DNA from: Nannocystis bainbridge
Lineage (GTDB): Bacteria > Myxococcota_A > Polyangia > Nannocystales > Nannocystaceae
Assembly: GCF_028368995.1 (NCBI RefSeq)
Contig: NZ_JAQNDL010000003.1
Location: forward strand, 1,440,001 to 1,504,000
Direction: 5' to 3'
DNA: 64,000 nucleotides
Numbering within the stretch: position 1 is the first letter of the stretch; each line of letters begins with the position of its first letter. Of the stretch, positions 2,418-44,554 are shown piece by piece. Below the pieces are notes generated by a model that worked only from the letters and a program-made list of their open reading frames with translations, did not search any database and was not told the origin of the DNA. Position numbers and translations under genes: made by a program.

Positions 2418-5400
2418 AGCGCCTGTCCTTTCGGCCATGGCTGTTCGGACCTGCTCTTTGGGCCCTGTCCCTTGCGACAGCATCGCCCGCCGCCGCCCTG
2501 CCGCGCAGCGAGCTGCCGCCGCCGTCGGGCTGGCAGGGCATCCTCGGCGAGCCGGGCTCGGGCAGCGCGCGTGAGCCGACCGGCGCGGTCGACCGGCGCG
2601 CGCTGTCGGTCCCGCCGGCGCGCCTGCCGAAGACCGCCGAGGACGACAAGGCCCTCTCCGACCTCGAGGCGATCTTCGCCCGCTACCGCCGCGCCGCCGC
2701 CGTCGCCGCCGACACCCTGGCCGTCGTCACCGTGGTCGAGGCCGAGCGCGGCCGCGGCAAGCTGCAGAAGCAGCTCGACGGCCAGATCGCCGCCCACAAG
2801 GCCAAGGCCCTGCAGCTGCGCGAGGCCGCGATCGCCCGCTACGACGGCTTCCTCAAGCAGAACCCGTCCGACCCGAGCTGGACCCCCGAGATCCTGTTCC
2901 GCCTGGCCGAGCTCCACTTCGAGTCCGACAACGAGCGATACGCACGCGCCGAGTCCGACTACGAAAAGGCGCTGCTCGCCTTCGAGGACCGCAAAGACAA
3001 GAAGCCACCTCCACGGCCCTCCGGGCCTGGTGCCGACGTCCCGCCCGACCCGCCGAAGGTCGACTACGCCAGGAGCGTCGCCCTGCTGCACGACCTCAAC
3101 GCCCGCTTCCCGTCCTACGTCCACGCCGACGCCGCCCTGTACTTGATGGCCGTCCTGCGCTTCGAAGAGGAGCGGTTCGACGAGAGCCGGCAGACCATGC
3201 TCGCGCTGGTGTGCGCCGACCGCTACGCCGTGCCCGGCCCCGACGGCAGCGGCGTCGTCCCGGCCAAGAACTTCCGCGCCGGCGACTACAACGGCTGCAA
3301 CCCGCGCAAGCCGGGCAGCAAGTACATCGCCGAGACCTGGCTGCGGATCGGCGAGCTCCACTACGACCTCGACGAGATGCGGCCCGCGCTCGAGGCTTAC
3401 ACCGAGGCCGCGCGCGACACCGGCGGCCCTTACTTCGACGAGGCGACCATCCGGATCGCCTGGACCCTCTATCTTCAGCGCGATTTCCCCGGCGCCGCCG
3501 CCCGCCTCGACGAGTACGTGCGCCTGGCCGAGAGCATGAAGGCCGCCGGCGACGACTCGGCGATGGCCCTGCGCGACGACGCCATCCGCTACATCGCCAA
3601 GTGTTACATCGAGGACGACTGGGACCTCGACGGCAACCCCGACCCCGCGATCGGCTTCGCCCGCCTCGAGCGCGACTACAAGGCCCGCGGCGGCGAGAAG
3701 CACGTCGCCGAGATCTACGCCGCGCTCGGCGACCTCTACGCCTTCCAGACCGACTTCAAGCTCGCCATCAAGATCTGGGACGCCGCCCTCGCCCGCTGGC
3801 CGACCGCCGCCGCCGCCCCGCTGCTGCAGAAGAAGATCCTCGACGCCCAGGTCGCGCTCGGCGACAAGAACGGGGCTCGCAACGCCCGCGACGCCCTCGC
3901 CAACAACTTCTTGCGCGGCACCCCGTGGTTCTACGCCAACGAGGCCGACACCGAGGCGATCGACGCGGCGATGAAGCTCGTCGAGGAGGCGCTGGTCGCC
4001 AGCGCCGTCGAGCGCCACGCCTACGCCCAGAGCTTGCGGGCCGCCGGCGACCCGCGGGCCGAGGAGGAGTACAAGAAGGCCGCGGCCGCCTACGCCGCCT
4101 ACCTCCTGCGCTACCCCGACACCCCGTCCTCGTACCAATACCGCTACGACTACGCCGAGAGCCTCTATTACTCCGGCCAGTTCCTCGAGGCCGCGCGCGA
4201 GTACATCATCGTGCGCGACAGCAACACCGCCGCCAGCCGCCAGATCGACGCCGCCGAGGGCGTGGTGTTCTCGCTCGAGGACTTCGTCGACGCCGAGCAG
4301 AAGGCCGGCAAGCTGACCCTGCCGGACCTGCCGAAGCAGGACGTCGCCAAGCCGCCCTTCGACCCCAAGCCGATCCCCGAGGCCCTGGTCGCGCTGCAGG
4401 CCGCCTACGACAAGCTGGTCGCCATCAAGCCCGACGCCAAGGCCGCCGGCAGCCTGGCCTTCAAGTCAGGCGCGATCAGCCAGCGCTACATGCACTGGGA
4501 CGAGGCCGAGACCCGCTTCACCCGCGTCATCGACGACTACTGCGGCGAGAACGTCGCCATCAACGCCGGCTTCTCGATCATCGACGGCAAGGTCATCCGC
4601 GGCGACCTCAAGGCCGCGCAGGAGTGGACCGAGAAGCTGCTGCAGAAGGGCTGCGGCGACGCCGAGCAGAGCGAGAAGTTCGCCGGCGACCTCAAGACCC
4701 TCGGCAACGCGGTCCGCTTCAAGGAGGCCAACCAGCTGTTCGAGGCCGGCGAGTTCGAGGCCGCCGCCGACCGCTACACCGCGCTCGTCGACCAGGCCCC
4801 GAAGGACCCCAACGCCGACCGCGCGCTCAACAACGCCGCCGTCGCCTACGAGAAGATCGGCCGCTTCGGCAGCGCCTCCAAGACCTACGAGCGCATCTAC
4901 AAGCAGTACCCGGACAGCGAGTTCGCCGACGACGCCCTGCTGCGCTCGGGCCTCAACCACGTCCGCTTCTTCGAGTTCGACGACGCCGTCGCCAGCTACC
5001 TCGTGCTGGCCCAGGACGAGCGCTACAAGGACTCCGAGCACCGCCTGCTCGCGCTCAAGAACGCCGCCGACCTGCTCGACAACCTCCAGCAGTACAAGAA
5101 ATCGTCGGACCTGTTCGTCCGCTACGCCGCCAAGACCACCGACCCCAAGGAGGCCGCGGACGCCAGCTTCCGCGCCGCCTCGGTGCTCGGCAAGACCGAC
5201 GACCACAAGGCCGCCGAGACCGCCTTCGCCGCCTTCCTCGCCAAGTTCGGCGCCGACCCGACGCAGGCCGCCAAGTCGGTCGAGGCCCACCTGCGGATCG
5301 GCGAGGCCCGCTCCGCTCGCGGCGACCGCAAGGGCGCCGAGACGGCCTACCGCGAGTGCGTCGCGCTCTACACCGCCCGCGGCCTGCAGGCCGCCAGCGA

Positions 5401-15479: not shown

Positions 15480-15983
15480 TTAATTCTTGCTCATCTGCGT
15501 CTTCTTGCTGCGGGCCTCGCCCTTCTTCTCGAACCCTGCCGCCAGGCAATCGCCGGGTGAGCCCGCCTTGGCGCAGGCGTCGGTCAGCGCCGCCTTGCAG
15601 GCCTCTTCGCTGCTGACCGCGGAGGACGCCTCGCCGTCGACCATCGGCGCGATCGCCACCAGCGTCAGCGTCGTCGAGTGGGCCGTCGGACCGCCGCCGC
15701 TGGCCGACATCGACGACTTCGTCATCGACCACTTCGACTCGTCGCGGCAGGAAGGGCGCTCGGCCTCCGGCAGCTTGGCGCACACGTCCGTCCACGCCGC
15801 CTCGTCGGCCTTGGCCGGGTCCTCGCCGTTGCCCTTGCCCGAGAACTCGCTGGCCTTGTTCGCCACCTGAATGCTGCAGCGGTACTCCGTCTTCGGGCCC
15901 TGCGGCTGGCTCGGCGCCGGCTCGCTGCCGCTGCCGCCGCCGCAGGCCGCGAGGCAGGCCGCCAGCCCCAGCACGGGCGCCAT
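15480..15983 (-). CDS. Hypothetical Cys-containing lipoprotein
   Basis: Lipobox CLAAC; six further Cys; convergent with hisB. Confidence 0.6.
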
Positions 15984-16072
15984 CGGGGTGCTCTTGCGCT
16001 CTTCTCGCATGCTGCGCCCATAGCACATCTGCGCGCGAGCCCGCCGCGATTCCTGCTATTTTCCGCCCCGTC

Positions 16073-18562: not shown

Positions 18563-18593
18563 TCTTCTTCCCCGTTCTTAAAAGGAAGAGACA

Positions 18594-18649
18594 TGTCCTC
18601 TGCGACATGCTTCCGAGGACATGCTCATCGGGACATGTCCTCGTGAGCA
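18594..18649. repeat. 14-bp-phased array of TGTCC-N4-GGACA-like units (4)
   Basis: tgtcctctgcgaca|tgcttccgaggaca|tgctcatcgggaca|tgtcctcgtgagca. Confidence 0.85.
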
Positions 18650-19335
18650 TGTCCTGATCGCGCCCCGACGAAGATCCCCGCCGCCAGCAGATCCTCCACC
18701 ACCTCGTCCGCGCCCCACGGCTCCGGCGCGCCGGCCAGCGCCGCCTCGATCGCCGCCAGCTCCTCGTCGATCGGCGTCGCCCGGCAGGCGTCGAGCTCGC
18801 CGTCTCGCCACACCACCGTCGCCGTCTCGCCGCGCACAGGCTCGGCCGCCCACGCCTCCTCGCCGAGCCAAGCCGCCACGTCCCACGACCCGCGCAGCAC
18901 CACCACCGACCTCGCCGCTCGCAGCGGCCCCTCCGCGCTGTCGCGCGGGTCATCCGGCCCGCTCTCGGCCCGCCACGTCGCCCACTCGAGCGCCGCCAGC
19001 TCCCCGAGCCACGCTGGCGACCCCGCCTGCCGGGCCACGAACTCGCCGAACCCCGCGGCGTTCTCGTTGAGCTCGAAGCTCTGCGCCGGCCGCTCGTGGA
19101 AATAAGCCTCGACCCACGCCGCCCACCGCGCCTCGCCCACGCGCACCATCACGGCCTCCCGCGTGCCCGCGTGGATGACGTCGATCGCGTCGCGCCGCAG
19201 CTTGCGGCACATCTCCGCGTACACCTGCAGCCCCTCGGCTGCCCCCTCGATCGCCAGCGACTTCGCCACCGTCGCCGCGTCCGCCGTCCCCTCGATCAGC
19301 GGCTGCAGCGTCGAGAACAAGCCCGCCAGCCGCAT
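18625..19335 (-). CDS. DUF2063 (HvfC/BufC-like) MNIO partner protein
   Basis: GLQVY...VGEARWAAWVEAYFHERP...GFGEFV...WLGELAALEWA; TGATG coupling to DUF692 gene. Confidence 0.8.
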   Translation of the reverse strand: MRLAGLFSTLQPLIEGTADAATVAKSLAIEGAAEGLQVYAEMCRKLRRDAIDVIHAGTREAVMVRVGEARWAAWVEAYFHERPAQSFELNENAAGFGEFVARQAGSPAWLGELAALEWATWRAESGPDDPRDSAEGPLRAARSVVVLRGSWDVAAWLGEEAWAAEPVRGETATVVWRDGELDACRATPIDEELAAIEAALAGAPEPWGADEVVEDLLAAGIFVGARSGHAHEDMSR

Positions 19336-20159
19336 CACAGCCCCTCCAGCGCCAGCGCCGACTCGCGGCGGGCCCGCGCCACCTCGGCCAGCAGCACCTC
19401 GACCGGCGGAAGATCGGTCTCCCACTCGACGATCGTCGGGATCGCCCGCCCCGCCTTGCGGATCGTCCAGCGATACAGCGACCACACCGCCTCCGGCACC
19501 GGCCCCGTGTGATCGTCGATCAGCAGCGACCCGCGCGGCCGATGCCCCGCCACGTGGATCTCCCGCACCCGCGCCAGCGGCAGCGCGTCCACATAGGCCT
19601 CCGGCGCCAGCCCGTGGTTGTGCGCATTGACGAGGACATTGCCGATGTCGAGCAGCAGCCCGCAGTCGGCCTCCTCGATCACCGTTCGCACGAACACCGG
19701 CTCCGCCAGCGCGTCGTCGGGCAGGCGCGCGTACGTGGCCACGTTCTCGAGCACCAGCTCTCGGCCGAGCCGCGCCTGTACCGCCTGCACCCGCCCCACC
19801 ACGTGCGCCGCCGCCTCCTCGCTGTGCGGCAACGGCAGGAGCGCGTGCGTGTAGCCGCCGCCGATCCGCCCGAAGCACAGGTGGTCGCTCCACCACTCGA
19901 GACCCAGCCCCGCGACCGCGCGGAGGAGCTCGTCGTCGAGCGGTTCGGGCCCGCCGACCGACAGCGAGATGCTGTGACCGACAGCGGGCCAGCGCTCGCG
20001 ACACGCGTCGAAGATCCGCCGCCGCCGCCCGCCGAAGCGGGCCCAGTTCTCCGGCATCACCTCGATGAAGTCGAGCGCCGGCTCGGCGGCCAGCAGCGCC
20101 TCTGCATATTCGTGCAGCAGCAACACCCCGACCCCGCCGTCCGCGATCGTCCCTTTCAT
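19335..20159 (-). CDS. DUF692 multinuclear non-heme iron oxidase (MNIO)
   Basis: DFIEVMPENW; GHSISLSVGG; WSDHLC; LENV; LLLDIGNVLVNAHN; IHVAGH; IDDH; IVEWE. Confidence 0.92.
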   Translation of the reverse strand: MKGTIADGGVGVLLLHEYAEALLAAEPALDFIEVMPENWARFGGRRRRIFDACRERWPAVGHSISLSVGGPEPLDDELLRAVAGLGLEWWSDHLCFGRIGGGYTHALLPLPHSEEAAAHVVGRVQAVQARLGRELVLENVATYARLPDDALAEPVFVRTVIEEADCGLLLDIGNVLVNAHNHGLAPEAYVDALPLARVREIHVAGHRPRGSLLIDDHTGPVPEAVWSLYRWTIRKAGRAIPTIVEWETDLPPVEVLLAEVARARRESALALEGL

Positions 20160-20228
20160 CGCAGTCTCACCAATGCCCATACCGCGAGCCGAGCCCGCGA
20201 CAGCCAACAATCCGGGGTGGGTTCAATC

Positions 20229-20272
20229 GGCCCTCCTCGCCCGCAGCGAGCCGCCCAGGCGCGAGGAGGGCC
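20229..20272 (-). other. Stem-loop between peptide gene and MNIO gene
   Basis: ggccctcctcgc ... gcgaggagggcc 12-bp perfect inverted repeat, 20-nt loop. Confidence 0.7.
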
Positions 20273-20324
20273 CGTATTTCCCCGGCGCGCCGATGCGGCC
20301 CGCCGGGCGCGAACCGGCGCGGCG

Positions 20325-20399
20325 CTAGCCCTTGCAGCTGCCCGCGCGCACGTTCGTCTTGACCTTCACCCCACCCTTGACACCCTTTTTCTTCTGCAT
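20325..20399 (-). CDS. 24-aa putative RiPP precursor MQKKKGVKGGVKVKTNVRAGSCKG
   Basis: ATG at 20399, TAG at 20327-20325; GGAGG 7 nt upstream; co-oriented and directly upstream of DUF692; one Cys near C-terminus; absent from ORF track because of size. Confidence 0.8.
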   Translation of the reverse strand: MQKKKGVKGGVKVKTNVRAGSCKG

Positions 20400-20516
20400 T
20401 CAAAAGCCTCCTGTAAAAGCCATTTTTAAAGCTAGCCGAGCCCCTCCGCACCGTCAAGGCGCGCCGGCGCACGATTCACGGCCGCATCCGCGCCGCGGCT
20501 GGTATCGTCATAGTCG

Positions 20517-21218
20517 ATGCCCGCCTTCGTCGTCTCGCTGCGCGAGCCCAATTACGGCAGCCCCGTCGCCGCCGAAGTCGTCGGCGACGTCGCTGTGGTC
20601 GCCGTCGCCAGCGCATGGGGAGCGTGGACCGGACTCGAGGCCGAGCAGCCCGCCGTCCTCGGCGCCCAGACCTCGCTCGCCGCCGACGCGCGCGCCGGCG
20701 CGACCGACTGGCGAGCCGCGCTGGTGCGAGCATTCGCTGGCGCCTCCGCGCACATCAGCCGCCTGCCCCCGCCCGAAGACCCCGAGTGGGCCCCGCTCAC
20801 CTCGCTGACCTGCGCCGTCGTCACGCCCGCGCAGATCTTCGTCGGCTGGCTCGGCGGCGTCACGGCCTGCGTGCTCGACGATCGTCGCCTCGCCCGCGAG
20901 TCAGAGCCGCACACGCTCATCCGCCAGCTGCTCGCCGAGGGCCACAAGACCGCGGCGCTGGGCGGCATGGCCCTCAGCCTCGGCCACATCATCGTCCGCA
21001 GCGTCGGCCCCGCGGGCCACCCCGCCCCCGCGCCCGAGCTCGTCGAGTGGCCGCCGCTGCAGCCCGGTCAACGCCTGCTGTTGACCCCGCGGGCCACCGT
21101 CGCCGCGCTGCGCGGCAGCTTGCCGCTCGCGCAACTCGGCGGCGATCCATGGCTGCACGCCGCCGTCTCGACGTGCGACGAGATCGGCCACCGGATCGGC
21201 GCCCTCGTCGAACCATGA
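20517..21218 (+). CDS. PP2C-fold-like protein lacking catalytic Asp residues
   Basis: LTCAVVT..IFVGWLGG, EPHTL, HIIVRSVG, LQPGQRLLL parallel PP2C motifs without GD/DH/DG. Confidence 0.5.
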   Translation: MPAFVVSLREPNYGSPVAAEVVGDVAVVAVASAWGAWTGLEAEQPAVLGAQTSLAADARAGATDWRAALVRAFAGASAHISRLPPPEDPEWAPLTSLTCAVVTPAQIFVGWLGGVTACVLDDRRLARESEPHTLIRQLLAEGHKTAALGGMALSLGHIIVRSVGPAGHPAPAPELVEWPPLQPGQRLLLTPRATVAALRGSLPLAQLGGDPWLHAAVSTCDEIGHRIGALVEP

Positions 21219-21234
21219 ATCCATGCGTCCCATC

Positions 21235-21326
21235 GGTCTCCAAGGACATGTCTCGAGAGACACATCAATCGCTCACGCGTGAGCCCGACCGTAAACTCTG
21301 TCTCCAAGGACATGTCCCGAGAGACA
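21235..21326. repeat. Two doublets of the 14-bp palindrome (direct repeat, period 64)
   Basis: gtctccaaggacatgtcYcgagagaca at 21236 and 21300. Confidence 0.85.
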
Positions 21327-23029: not shown

Positions 23030-23099
23030 TGTCCCAAAGAACATGTCCTCCGGAAAATGCCCTTCAAGACATGTCTTGAAGAACATTCCCCGAAGGACA
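23030..23099. repeat. 14-bp-phased array (5 units)
   Basis: tgtcccaaagaaca|tgtcctccggaaaa|tgcccttcaagaca|tgtcttgaagaaca|ttccccgaaggaca. Confidence 0.88.
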
Positions 23100-25589: not shown

Positions 25590-25615
25590 CCGGGTAGCGC
25601 CCGAACGCATGGACA

Positions 25616-25705
25616 TGTCCCAAAGAACATGCTCCATGCGACATGAGACACAACTGTAGCGATGGCTCGCCAGGACATGTCCAACAGGACATGTCCAACA
25701 GGACA
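25616..25705. repeat. Two short 14-bp-phased arrays
   Basis: tgtcccaaagaaca|tgctccatgcgaca and tgtccaacaggaca|tgtccaacaggaca. Confidence 0.85.
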
Positions 25706-32346: not shown

Positions 32347-32577
32347 GGTCCCTCGGGACATGTCCGTTCGCGCATGTCCTGAAGACCCTCGAGAGACGGA
32401 CCGCCACCGCATCGATCCGCCTCGGGACATGTCCGTTCGCGCATGTCCTGAAGACCCTCGAGAGACGGACCGCCGCGTCGTTTCACATGTCCCGAAGGAC
32501 ATCGACTTCGCCGCCGATCTCCGCGTGACCCGGCCGCTTTCCTCGCGCACCGCGATCACGACATGTCCTTCGAGACA
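32347..32577. repeat. 55-bp direct repeat x2 (period 69) plus 14-bp palindrome units
   Basis: cctcgggacatgtccgttcgcgcatgtcctgaagaccctcgagagacggaccgcc at 32351 and 32420; palindromes at 32488 and 32564. Confidence 0.88.
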
Positions 32578-44073: not shown

Positions 44074-44187
44074 CCCGGGCCAGGATGGCGCAGCCGCTCC
44101 GGACCGCCAGCCCGCCCGCCCAGCGCCCCCGCGGCCGCGCCTCGCCGCGACCGCCGTCAAACGGCGCAGGCCTCGCCACCCCGACCA

Positions 44188-44554
44188 CATGTCCCAGAGG
44201 ACATCTCACGGCCGCCGCCCCCGCCGCCCCGTCATATGTCCAGAAGGACATCTCACGCCCGCCGCCCGCGTCGCACTAAACATGTCCAAAAGGACATATC
44301 TCGACTCGCCACCCCGCGCCGCCCCTGAACATGTCCAAAAGGAAATCGCAGCTCGCCGCCCATGAACATGTCCCAAAGGACATGCAACGACTCGCCGCCC
44401 CGCATCGCGCTAAACATGTCTAGAAAGGACATATCACGGCTCGCCGCCCCGCGTCACCCCTAAACATGTCCAAAAGGACATATCATGGCTCACCGCCCGC
44501 GCCGTGCACCGGCCTCCCTCGCGCCTCGCCCATCCACATGTCTCGCTAGACATC
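44188..44554. repeat. Long-period (about 47 bp) degenerate tandem repeat, 8 units each with ACATGTCCAAAAGGACAT-like core
   Basis: Cores at 44190, 44237, 44283, 44332, 44369, 44417, 44467, 44539. Confidence 0.9.

Follow-up and report, generated by a model that had tools for sequence, protein, structure and literature searches.

Is the 24-residue peptide encoded just ahead of an MNIO (DUF692) gene in Nannocystis bainbridge the substrate of that enzyme, and to which kind of MNIO system would such a short peptide belong? The question is raised by a three-gene unit in a 64,000-nucleotide stretch of contig NZ_JAQNDL010000003.1 (positions 1,440,001 to 1,504,000; this whole stretch is hereafter the window, and coordinates refer to it). 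An earlier note on this DNA had described a minus-strand open reading frame (ORF) at 20399-20325 with a GGAGG ribosome-binding site and a 24-residue, Cys-containing product. The sequence bears this ORF out, and its conservation in 5/5 orthologous loci marks it as real. The Nannocystis unit is best described as a minimal offshoot of the captophorin/oxazolin family, in which the peptide has a single Cys and no signal and the active site of the enzyme is re-lined; it is found so far in Nannocystis and a few soil metagenome fragments. The peptide ORF comes first in the unit and is followed by the MNIO gene and the gene of its DUF2063 partner:

20411-20407, minus strand: GGAGG ribosome-binding site, 7 nt ahead of the ATG, kept in 5/5 loci
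20399-20325, minus strand: candidate precursor peptide ORF, 24 codons plus TAG (ATG at 20399, TAG at 20327-20325), product MQKKKGVKGGVKVKTNVRAGSCKG
20159-19335, minus strand: MNIO (DUF692), 274 aa, divergent clade (PF05114, E 5.8e-83), ATG at 20159
19335-18625, minus strand: partner protein, 236 aa, DUF2063 (PF09836) plus RRE-like domain

The peptide ORF and its conservation

The peptide ORF cannot extend further upstream because an in-frame TGA directly precedes its ATG. Its third-position GC is 21/24 (hand count), like that of real genes here. The peptide contains seven Lys, one Arg and no acidic residue. Its sole Cys, at position 22, lies three residues from the C-terminus within a single terminal motif, GSCKG. 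The longest hydrophobic run is one residue, and the best 8-residue Kyte-Doolittle mean is 0.45, compared with 2.09 for the precursor at the related locus L006. By these hydrophobicity measures (run length and Kyte-Doolittle, rather than a dedicated predictor), the peptide has no signal peptide, which agrees with the earlier reading of a signal-less peptide with one Cys.

A 24-codon ORF by itself is within chance, and as judged from the alignments it is conservation that makes this ORF real. The closest relatives of the source genome carry the name Nannocystis. Among 73 genomes of the order, MNIO orthologs with ≥78% identity were found in five, the window's own included, all belonging to the same genus (5/11 genus genomes). 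The next matches in this search reach at most 49% identity, and the best anywhere outside the genus reaches 51%. The peptide ORF stands beside the MNIO in all five loci, as the earlier note had proposed to check, with identical start, stop and length. Averaged over pairs of the five loci, DNA identity reaches 96% within the ORF but falls to 71% over the 120 nt upstream of it and to 26% over the 100 nt downstream of it. The nucleotide changes within the ORF read as coding-type: four events are synonymous (in codons 4, 19 and 24, and at codon 21, where serine switches between AGC and TCC), and the two replacements (K3Q and G9S) are conservative and lie in the N-terminal part, leaving residues 10-24 invariant. 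The neighbouring MNIO gene shows only 84–91% DNA identity, with a third-position divergence of 13–24%. At the amino acid level, the peptide shares 92–100% identity among orthologs, compared with 78–87% for the MNIO.

A back-translated KTNVRAGSC pattern matched 10 sites in approximately 185,000 species genomes. Four of these are Nannocystis loci (N. punicea, N. radixulma, N. pusilla and Nannocystis sp. RBIL2), and the other six lie in unrelated contexts. None of the three peptide variants is present in approximately 15 billion predicted proteins, indicating that gene callers have not called the ORF and upholding its description as unannotated. In contigs of two further public runs (X17 and X19), the peptide ORF is joined to the start of the MNIO by a spacer of different size, so more relatives retain the arrangement. 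A metagenome search with the MNIO returned 11 loci, all with ≤48% identity, and no new orthologs. A six-frame motif search of all five contigs of the source genome recovered this locus only, with no further peptide copies.

The MNIO and its DUF2063 partner

The true start of the MNIO is probably the ATG at 20159, giving the 274-aa length of database entry P0003, and not the TTG of a 291-aa ORF. The protein matches PF05114 (MbnB_TglH_ChrH) with 278.6 bits against a cut-off of 25, covering positions 1-260 of the 263 in the model. It scores below the cut-offs of the NCBIfam models BufB (NF050167; 255.2 bits, cut-off 310) and HvfB (NF003818; 227.5 bits, cut-off 360) and far below that of MbnB (TIGR04159; 38.5 bits, cut-off 325). 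Its best solved relative is 3BWW. An alignment of the 120 best homologs, comprising six members of the Nannocystis clade and 114 others, was used to examine individual positions, together with a second set of 149 cluster representatives drawn from 1.84 billion proteins. The clade members share 58–100% identity and include Nannocystis and metagenome proteins (lowest P0008, 58%). The ligand-type residues H62, D92, H93, E138, D171, N174, H202, H206, D215, H217 and E245 are all kept, consistent with the intact iron-ligand motifs that had been noted earlier. Each of these positions is ≥95% conserved in the 114 homologs, and most are also conserved in the 149 representatives. Which of these His, Asp, Glu and Asn positions bind iron we take from general knowledge and homology rather than from a structure of this enzyme.

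The MNIO stop codon (19337-19335) and the ATG of the partner gene (19335-19333) overlap by 1 nt, in line with the coupling of the two genes that had been proposed. The partner passes the Pfam DUF2063 threshold narrowly (PF09836; 31.9 bits, cut-off 27.2) and does not reach the NCBIfam HvfC equivalog (36 bits, cut-off 142). Its AlphaFold2 model (pLDDT 90.3) consists of a helical domain (approximately residues 1-125) followed by three strands and three helices (145-219) that are RRE-like. The top Foldseek matches of this model are TglI (8hci_A, E 3.2e-6), NGO1945 (3dee, E 4.1e-6) and MbnC (7fc0_C). The fold predicted with this high confidence is that of MNIO partners, in which a helical domain is joined to an RRE-like beta/alpha domain. 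A cluster of GGACATGTC repeats makes up the 3' end of the partner gene, and the last 11 residues of the partner are not conserved.

Closest relatives of the MNIO

The closest non-orthologous MNIOs share 46–51% identity with the window MNIO. Where a precursor is visible, their upstream genes encode Sec-signal, Lys/Gly-rich peptides with repeats of the form KSCG, [G/H/K]SCKG or KKCG, and one example ends in ...GGEGSCKGGEGGCKH. Loci with SCKG/KSCG-repeat precursors are L006, L050-L056 and L063; at L007 and L054, which also fall in the sister clade, no convincing small precursor ORF was seen alongside the MNIO. In the FastTree phylogeny, the Nannocystis MNIOs form a clade (support 0.999) that is sister to the MNIOs with SCKG/KSCG precursors (support 0.978). 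The stem branch of the Nannocystis clade is long, 0.30 compared with 0.10 for the sister. The partner shares 31–36% identity with the sister-clade partners by tblastn and 33–37% in the alignment.

The earlier note had held that the unit matches no known class of MNIO precursor. This claim is not supported: GSCKG is the repeat unit of Sec-signal precursors encoded beside the closest MNIOs, and the enzymes are sisters in the tree. The sister placement and the GSCKG end together indicate a reduced derivative of the Buf_EGKCG/oxazolin kind and not a separate class.

Another MNIO group in the order (L008-L010, L012, L014, L037 and L038) is accompanied by precursors of lipoprotein type that contain extended arrays of [TA]GGCPG or EAGCPGT repeats, in which Cys is followed by Pro-Gly. 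No name for this motif type was met in the available portions of two MNIO surveys (PMC12452194; PMC13097082).

Altered positions in the MNIO

The sequence comparison also shows a feature that the earlier note had missed, namely that near-invariant second-shell positions of the MNIO are changed, including the proposed catalytic base. The clade-specific changes in the window MNIO are R15L, R16H, N173G, Q200E, T216D and D247E:

Position 15: Arg in 111/114 other homologs; Leu or His in the clade (6)
Position 16: Arg in 87/114 other homologs; His, Ser or Glu in the clade (6)
Position 173: Asn in 114/114 other homologs; Gly, Ala or Asn in the clade (6)
Position 200: Gln in 113/114 other homologs; Glu in the clade (6)
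Position 216: Thr in 100/114 other homologs; Asp in the clade (6)
Position 247: Asp in 114/114 other homologs; Glu in 6/6 clade members

The 149 representatives show Asp at position 247 in 147 cases and Glu in one; at position 15, 131 of them have Arg and five have Lys.

Two of these sites appear to correspond to residues of the MNIO FonB that have been studied. According to the portions of the article available, from which it is cited throughout, FonB-Asp249 is the proposed catalytic base and its Ala variant is inactive (PMC13097082; Gadgil et al., 2026). FonB Arg15 and Arg16 hold the substrate Glu, Arg15 keeps out cationic residues, and the R15A variant gains processing of an Arg-bearing substrate (PMC13097082). 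Position 247 would be the column of FonB-Asp249, an assignment made through the ERDF/EWDD patterns without the FonB sequence. Lys-Cys enzymes, 3BWW included, read E-R-D-F at this column and Cys-Lys enzymes read E-W-D-D, matching the published description (PMC13097082). Positions 15 and 16 would likewise fit FonB Arg15 and Arg16. The double Arg is lost in an enzyme whose putative substrate has eight basic residues and no acidic residue, the kind of paired change that a cognate enzyme and peptide would be expected to show. TglH, an MNIO of different chemistry, departs at both sites too, with E-Y-Q at the base position and no double Arg.

A pairing of the D-x-H motif residue with the residue after the substrate Cys, which took the Asp-Asp of IDDH as the published Cys-Lys determinant, was also tried. 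It failed, as SCKG-type relatives have DTH. The published determinant maps instead to the E-x-D-x column.

Comparison with known systems

The Buf_EGKCG/oxazolin systems of MNIO and PME1 partner (PMC12452194; Antoine et al., 2025) have been unified as captophorins (PMC13097082). As stated in the available part of the former survey, DUF2063-type (PME1) partners accompany Sec-signal, Cys-rich precursors, and other partner types accompany signal-less ones (PMC12452194). The Nannocystis partner has the DUF2063 domain and RRE of a captophorin PME1 partner. The peptide falls outside the Cys-rich precursors (DUF2282, Lys-Cys or Cys-Lys group), having one Cys in 24 residues, in S-C-K-G. In place of a repeated EGKCG-type motif it carries its single GSCKG, which resembles one repeat of the sister clade, and its enzyme has Glu where 5-thiooxazole-forming captophorin MNIOs have the proposed catalytic-base Asp.

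Oxazolin (HvfABC), fontiphorin (FonABC) and gonophorin share with the Nannocystis unit the gene order precursor, MNIO and DUF2063-RRE partner, as far as the available portions of the reports describe them (PMC11252979; PMC13097082). The MNIOs of Lys-Cys captophorins and of Nannocystis belong to the same large sequence group, and in both the Cys lies in a small Gly/Lys/Ser-rich 5-mer. Lys-Cys captophorins, however, have a Sec signal and 2 to 58 Cys, whereas the Nannocystis peptide has no signal and one Cys; Lys precedes the Cys in the former and follows it in the latter. The Nannocystis unit also differs in having no DoxX gene or regulator nearby and an enzyme without the double Arg and with Glu for the proposed base.

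Bufferin 2 (BufA2B2C2, Cys-Lys group) resembles the Nannocystis unit in that its substrate contains a Cys-Lys dyad and its partner is of the PME1 type. Cys-Lys MNIOs have an Asp right after the base Asp (E-x-D-D; here L021 and L026), whereas the Nannocystis clade reads E-W-E-T. Unlike the Nannocystis peptide, BufA2 carries a signal peptide and contains 6 or 12 Cys, and the Cys-Lys enzymes lie far from the Nannocystis clade in the tree. The likeness to methanobactin (MbnABC) is in form only: a short, signal-less, leader-bearing precursor whose Cys is modified by an MNIO-partner pair. The fold of the Nannocystis partner is nearer to TglI and NGO1945 than to MbnC, and no MbnC-type partner or transport genes were found. 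The sister-clade SCKG/KSCG-repeat systems have the closest enzymes, related partners and the SCKG motif in common with the Nannocystis unit, and a terminator-like hairpin after the precursor gene of L006 (by eye) is a further likeness. They differ in having signal peptides and several repeats and in keeping Arg-Arg, Asn173, Gln200 and Asp247.

No mention of the peptide or system in print was found, and Nannocystis together with DUF692 returned no papers; the supplementary tables of PMC12452194 and PMC13097082 may list the peptide or locus.

Putative expression signals and genomic neighbourhood

Three further features flank or separate the genes of the unit:

20429-20457, minus strand: promoter-like block (TTGACG, 17 nt, TAGCTT), a putative reading of the sequence
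20229-20321, minus strand: spacer between peptide ORF and MNIO, folded into two GC-rich hairpins (20321-20286 and 20272-20229)
18589-18640, minus strand: palindromic GGACATGTC repeats and a terminator-like hairpin (18610-18591) at the 3' end of the operon

The GCTAGC[CT]TT of the promoter-like block is kept in 5/5 loci and TTGAC in 3/5; a consensus promoter scan returned 0 sites and did not call the block. The peptide ORF and the MNIO are separated by 165 nt, and the fold of the whole spacer is not significant (z-score -0.88). Each ortholog has its own, different GC-rich hairpin at this site (by eye). A search of Rfam at E up to 1 gave a sole, sub-threshold hit inside the MNIO gene (mir-281, 20.6 bits, gathering score 70) and none in the ORF or spacer. 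The public runs found are mostly soil DNA metagenomes, and RNA over the peptide ORF was seen in none of them.

The GGACATGTC(C) palindrome occurs in 86 copies in the window with one mismatch allowed, compared with 11.5 expected, and is clustered between genes, for example at 18589-18640, 21244-21317, 23039-23076, 25611-25696, 32356-32568 and 44186-44484. The copies appear to form a REP-like family of intergenic repeats in the source genome.

The 16 neighbouring ORFs scanned (approximately 9.7–31.4 kb of the window) include no DoxX, ECF sigma, protease or transporter gene, as the earlier note had said of the adjacent genes. These neighbours are housekeeping or unrelated genes, encoding ExbD, polysaccharide export, IGPD, carboxyl transferase, TPR, DUF488, metallophosphatase, DNA ligase, OmpA and LysR proteins, and several without a family. 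Synteny in the four Nannocystis species examined runs carboxyl transferase, TPR, partner, MNIO, peptide, unknown 233-aa protein, DUF488, unknown 429-aa protein and metallophosphatase.

The 233-aa gene (20517-21218, plus strand) is divergent from the peptide ORF and adjoins the peptide in 4/4 other Nannocystis loci. Its product has no Pfam match even at E 10, and the only lead, to PP2C-type phosphatases (score 0.96), comes from a search with a protein language model. The two genes have a 117-nt intergenic region in common, in which a conserved block, GACTATGACGATA, adjoins the start of the 233-aa gene. No link between this gene and the peptide system was found. A 182-aa ORF (15480-16028, minus strand), located between hisB (IGPD) and the carboxyl transferase gene, has a lipoprotein-like N-terminus, several Cys and no Pfam family.

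Proposed mechanism and alternative explanations

We consider it probable that the peptide is real and is the cognate substrate of the MNIO-partner pair. The peptide would be translated from its own promoter-proximal ORF, and the spacer hairpins may set the ratio of peptide to enzyme. The RRE-like domain of the partner would bind the peptide, probably with the alternating V-K-V-K-T-N-V-R stretch as a beta-strand, and bring the C-terminal G-S-C-K-G up to the iron site of the MNIO. Oxidation of Cys22 by the enzyme would follow, most likely a four-electron one that forms a 5-thiooxazole with the carbonyl of Ser21 (-4 Da), as in captophorins, oxazolin and bufferins. Lacking a Sec signal, the product would be cytoplasmic and would stay there unless an unlinked exporter acts. 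The system probably descends from Sec-signal, multi-repeat KSCG/SCKG precursors by loss of the signal and of all but one repeat, with the enzyme pocket changing in step.

Several observations weigh against this reading. The BufB and HvfB equivalog cut-offs are missed and the proposed catalytic-base Asp is replaced by Glu, so the chemistry may differ. In the available account of FonBC, a one-repeat peptide and peptides with a charged residue after the Cys were left unmodified (PMC13097082), and a single S-C-K-G would thus be a poor substrate for a standard enzyme of the captophorin kind. The sole contig from an RNA library (X20, 165 nt, 20102-20265) covers the spacer and the start of the MNIO but not the ORF, and may be DNA carry-over. 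The intact examples are all limited to one genus and a few metagenome fragments, which gives the conservation little depth in time. The system is also dispensable. G010, a Nannocystis genome without the MNIO (90% complete), holds at the syntenic site only a truncated remnant of the partner gene (L067, G010:C1:3246000-3258000, ~3208-3840; partner residues 38-235, 69% identity). The remnant lies directly beside DUF488, indicating that a deletion removed everything else, with the peptide, the MNIO and the 233-aa PP2C-like gene among the losses. The more distant genus member G009 has nothing at the syntenic site. In the G007 assembly (N. pusilla Na p29; L005/L046), the MNIO is broken by an internal TGA or frame break at residues 80-86 and the peptide ORF is intact. 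This break may be an assembly error, given that the assembly is 80% complete by markers and that an intact N. pusilla protein (P0004) exists.

The altered enzyme raises the question of whether the peptide is a substrate of new chemistry, in which the changed site would, for example, form an oxazolone-thioamide, excise a carbon, or cut the peptide close to its C-terminus and so set free a very small product. Glu for Asp at position 247 in 6/6 clade members, 0/114 close homologs and 1/149 representatives would fit such a change, as would the loss of the double Arg, N173G/A and Q200E, the parallel departures of TglH, the long stem branch of the clade, and a Cys near the C-terminus where relatives have internal repeats. 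However, Asp to Glu is conservative and may retain the base function, every metal ligand is kept, the nearest relatives are ordinary Cys-heterocycle-type systems, and the FonB-Asp249 mapping comes from sequence patterns and not from FonB itself. New chemistry is judged unlikely, and within the cognate-substrate reading a thiooxazole is favoured over a different chemistry. The ORF could instead be a regulatory upstream ORF or leader peptide that tunes MNIO expression together with the downstream hairpins, the true substrate being encoded elsewhere. Two strong hairpins do follow the stop codon, and the source genome has four other MNIO loci, at least one of which (L033) has a conventional signal-bearing, lipoprotein-type Cys-repeat precursor with EKSCG-like motifs. 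But residues 10-24 are invariant while the hairpins differ completely between species, indicating selection on the peptide sequence; the sister clade's substrate motif stands at the C-terminus of the peptide, and the other MNIO paralogs have their own neighbourhoods. We regard a regulatory upstream ORF as improbable.

Slightly less probable still is an evolutionary relic, in which a multi-repeat precursor is decaying and the enzyme is losing its function. The lost signal and repeats, the substituted near-invariant residues, the deleted cassette in G010 and the disrupted frame in the G007 assembly would suit it. A relic is hard to reconcile with a peptide that is more conserved than its enzyme, with substitutions fixed across the clade down to 58% identity (P0008), and with metal ligands that are all kept; the frame break itself, in an incomplete assembly and with P0004 intact, is maybe an error. 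The least probable explanation, and in our view a very improbable one, is that the ORF is untranslated and the conserved 75 nt are an RNA or DNA element. Its DNA identity (96%) does exceed what the third-position divergence of the MNIO would predict. Yet GGAGG and its spacing are kept, the ORF boundaries are exactly those of the conserved block, the AGC/TCC switch retains serine, the third-position GC resembles that of genes, and the sub-threshold Rfam hit falls in the MNIO gene.

Implications

As a substrate of its MNIO-partner pair, the peptide would make this locus a natural exception on three counts to what the available portions of PMC12452194 and PMC13097082 describe, namely the association of PME1 with a Sec-signal, Cys-rich precursor, the need for two repeats, and the absence of a charged residue after the Cys. 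The very residues that MNIO studies have linked to the choice of substrate and to catalysis are changed in the enzyme, which would allow the part played by the proposed base to be tested in a natural variant. The peptide would be a very small, easily synthesised substrate for the study of leader recognition by the partner and of Cys selection and oxidation by the MNIO. The Nannocystis unit may also be the first cytoplasmic member of a metallophore family that is otherwise exported. Surveys built on annotated ORFs miss precursors as short as 24 residues.

A more far-reaching reading, which we put forward only tentatively, is that the pair has been neofunctionalised on a signal-less, single-Cys, polycationic 24-mer in the cytoplasm, with a product unlike the periplasmic copper-buffering captophorins. 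If so, the product would be either a new Cys-derived modification, arising from the Asp-to-Glu base and the re-lined pocket, or a thiooxazole peptide that acts inside the cell, for instance in handling metals in the cytoplasm or, through its eight basic residues, in binding nucleic acid or the ribosome.

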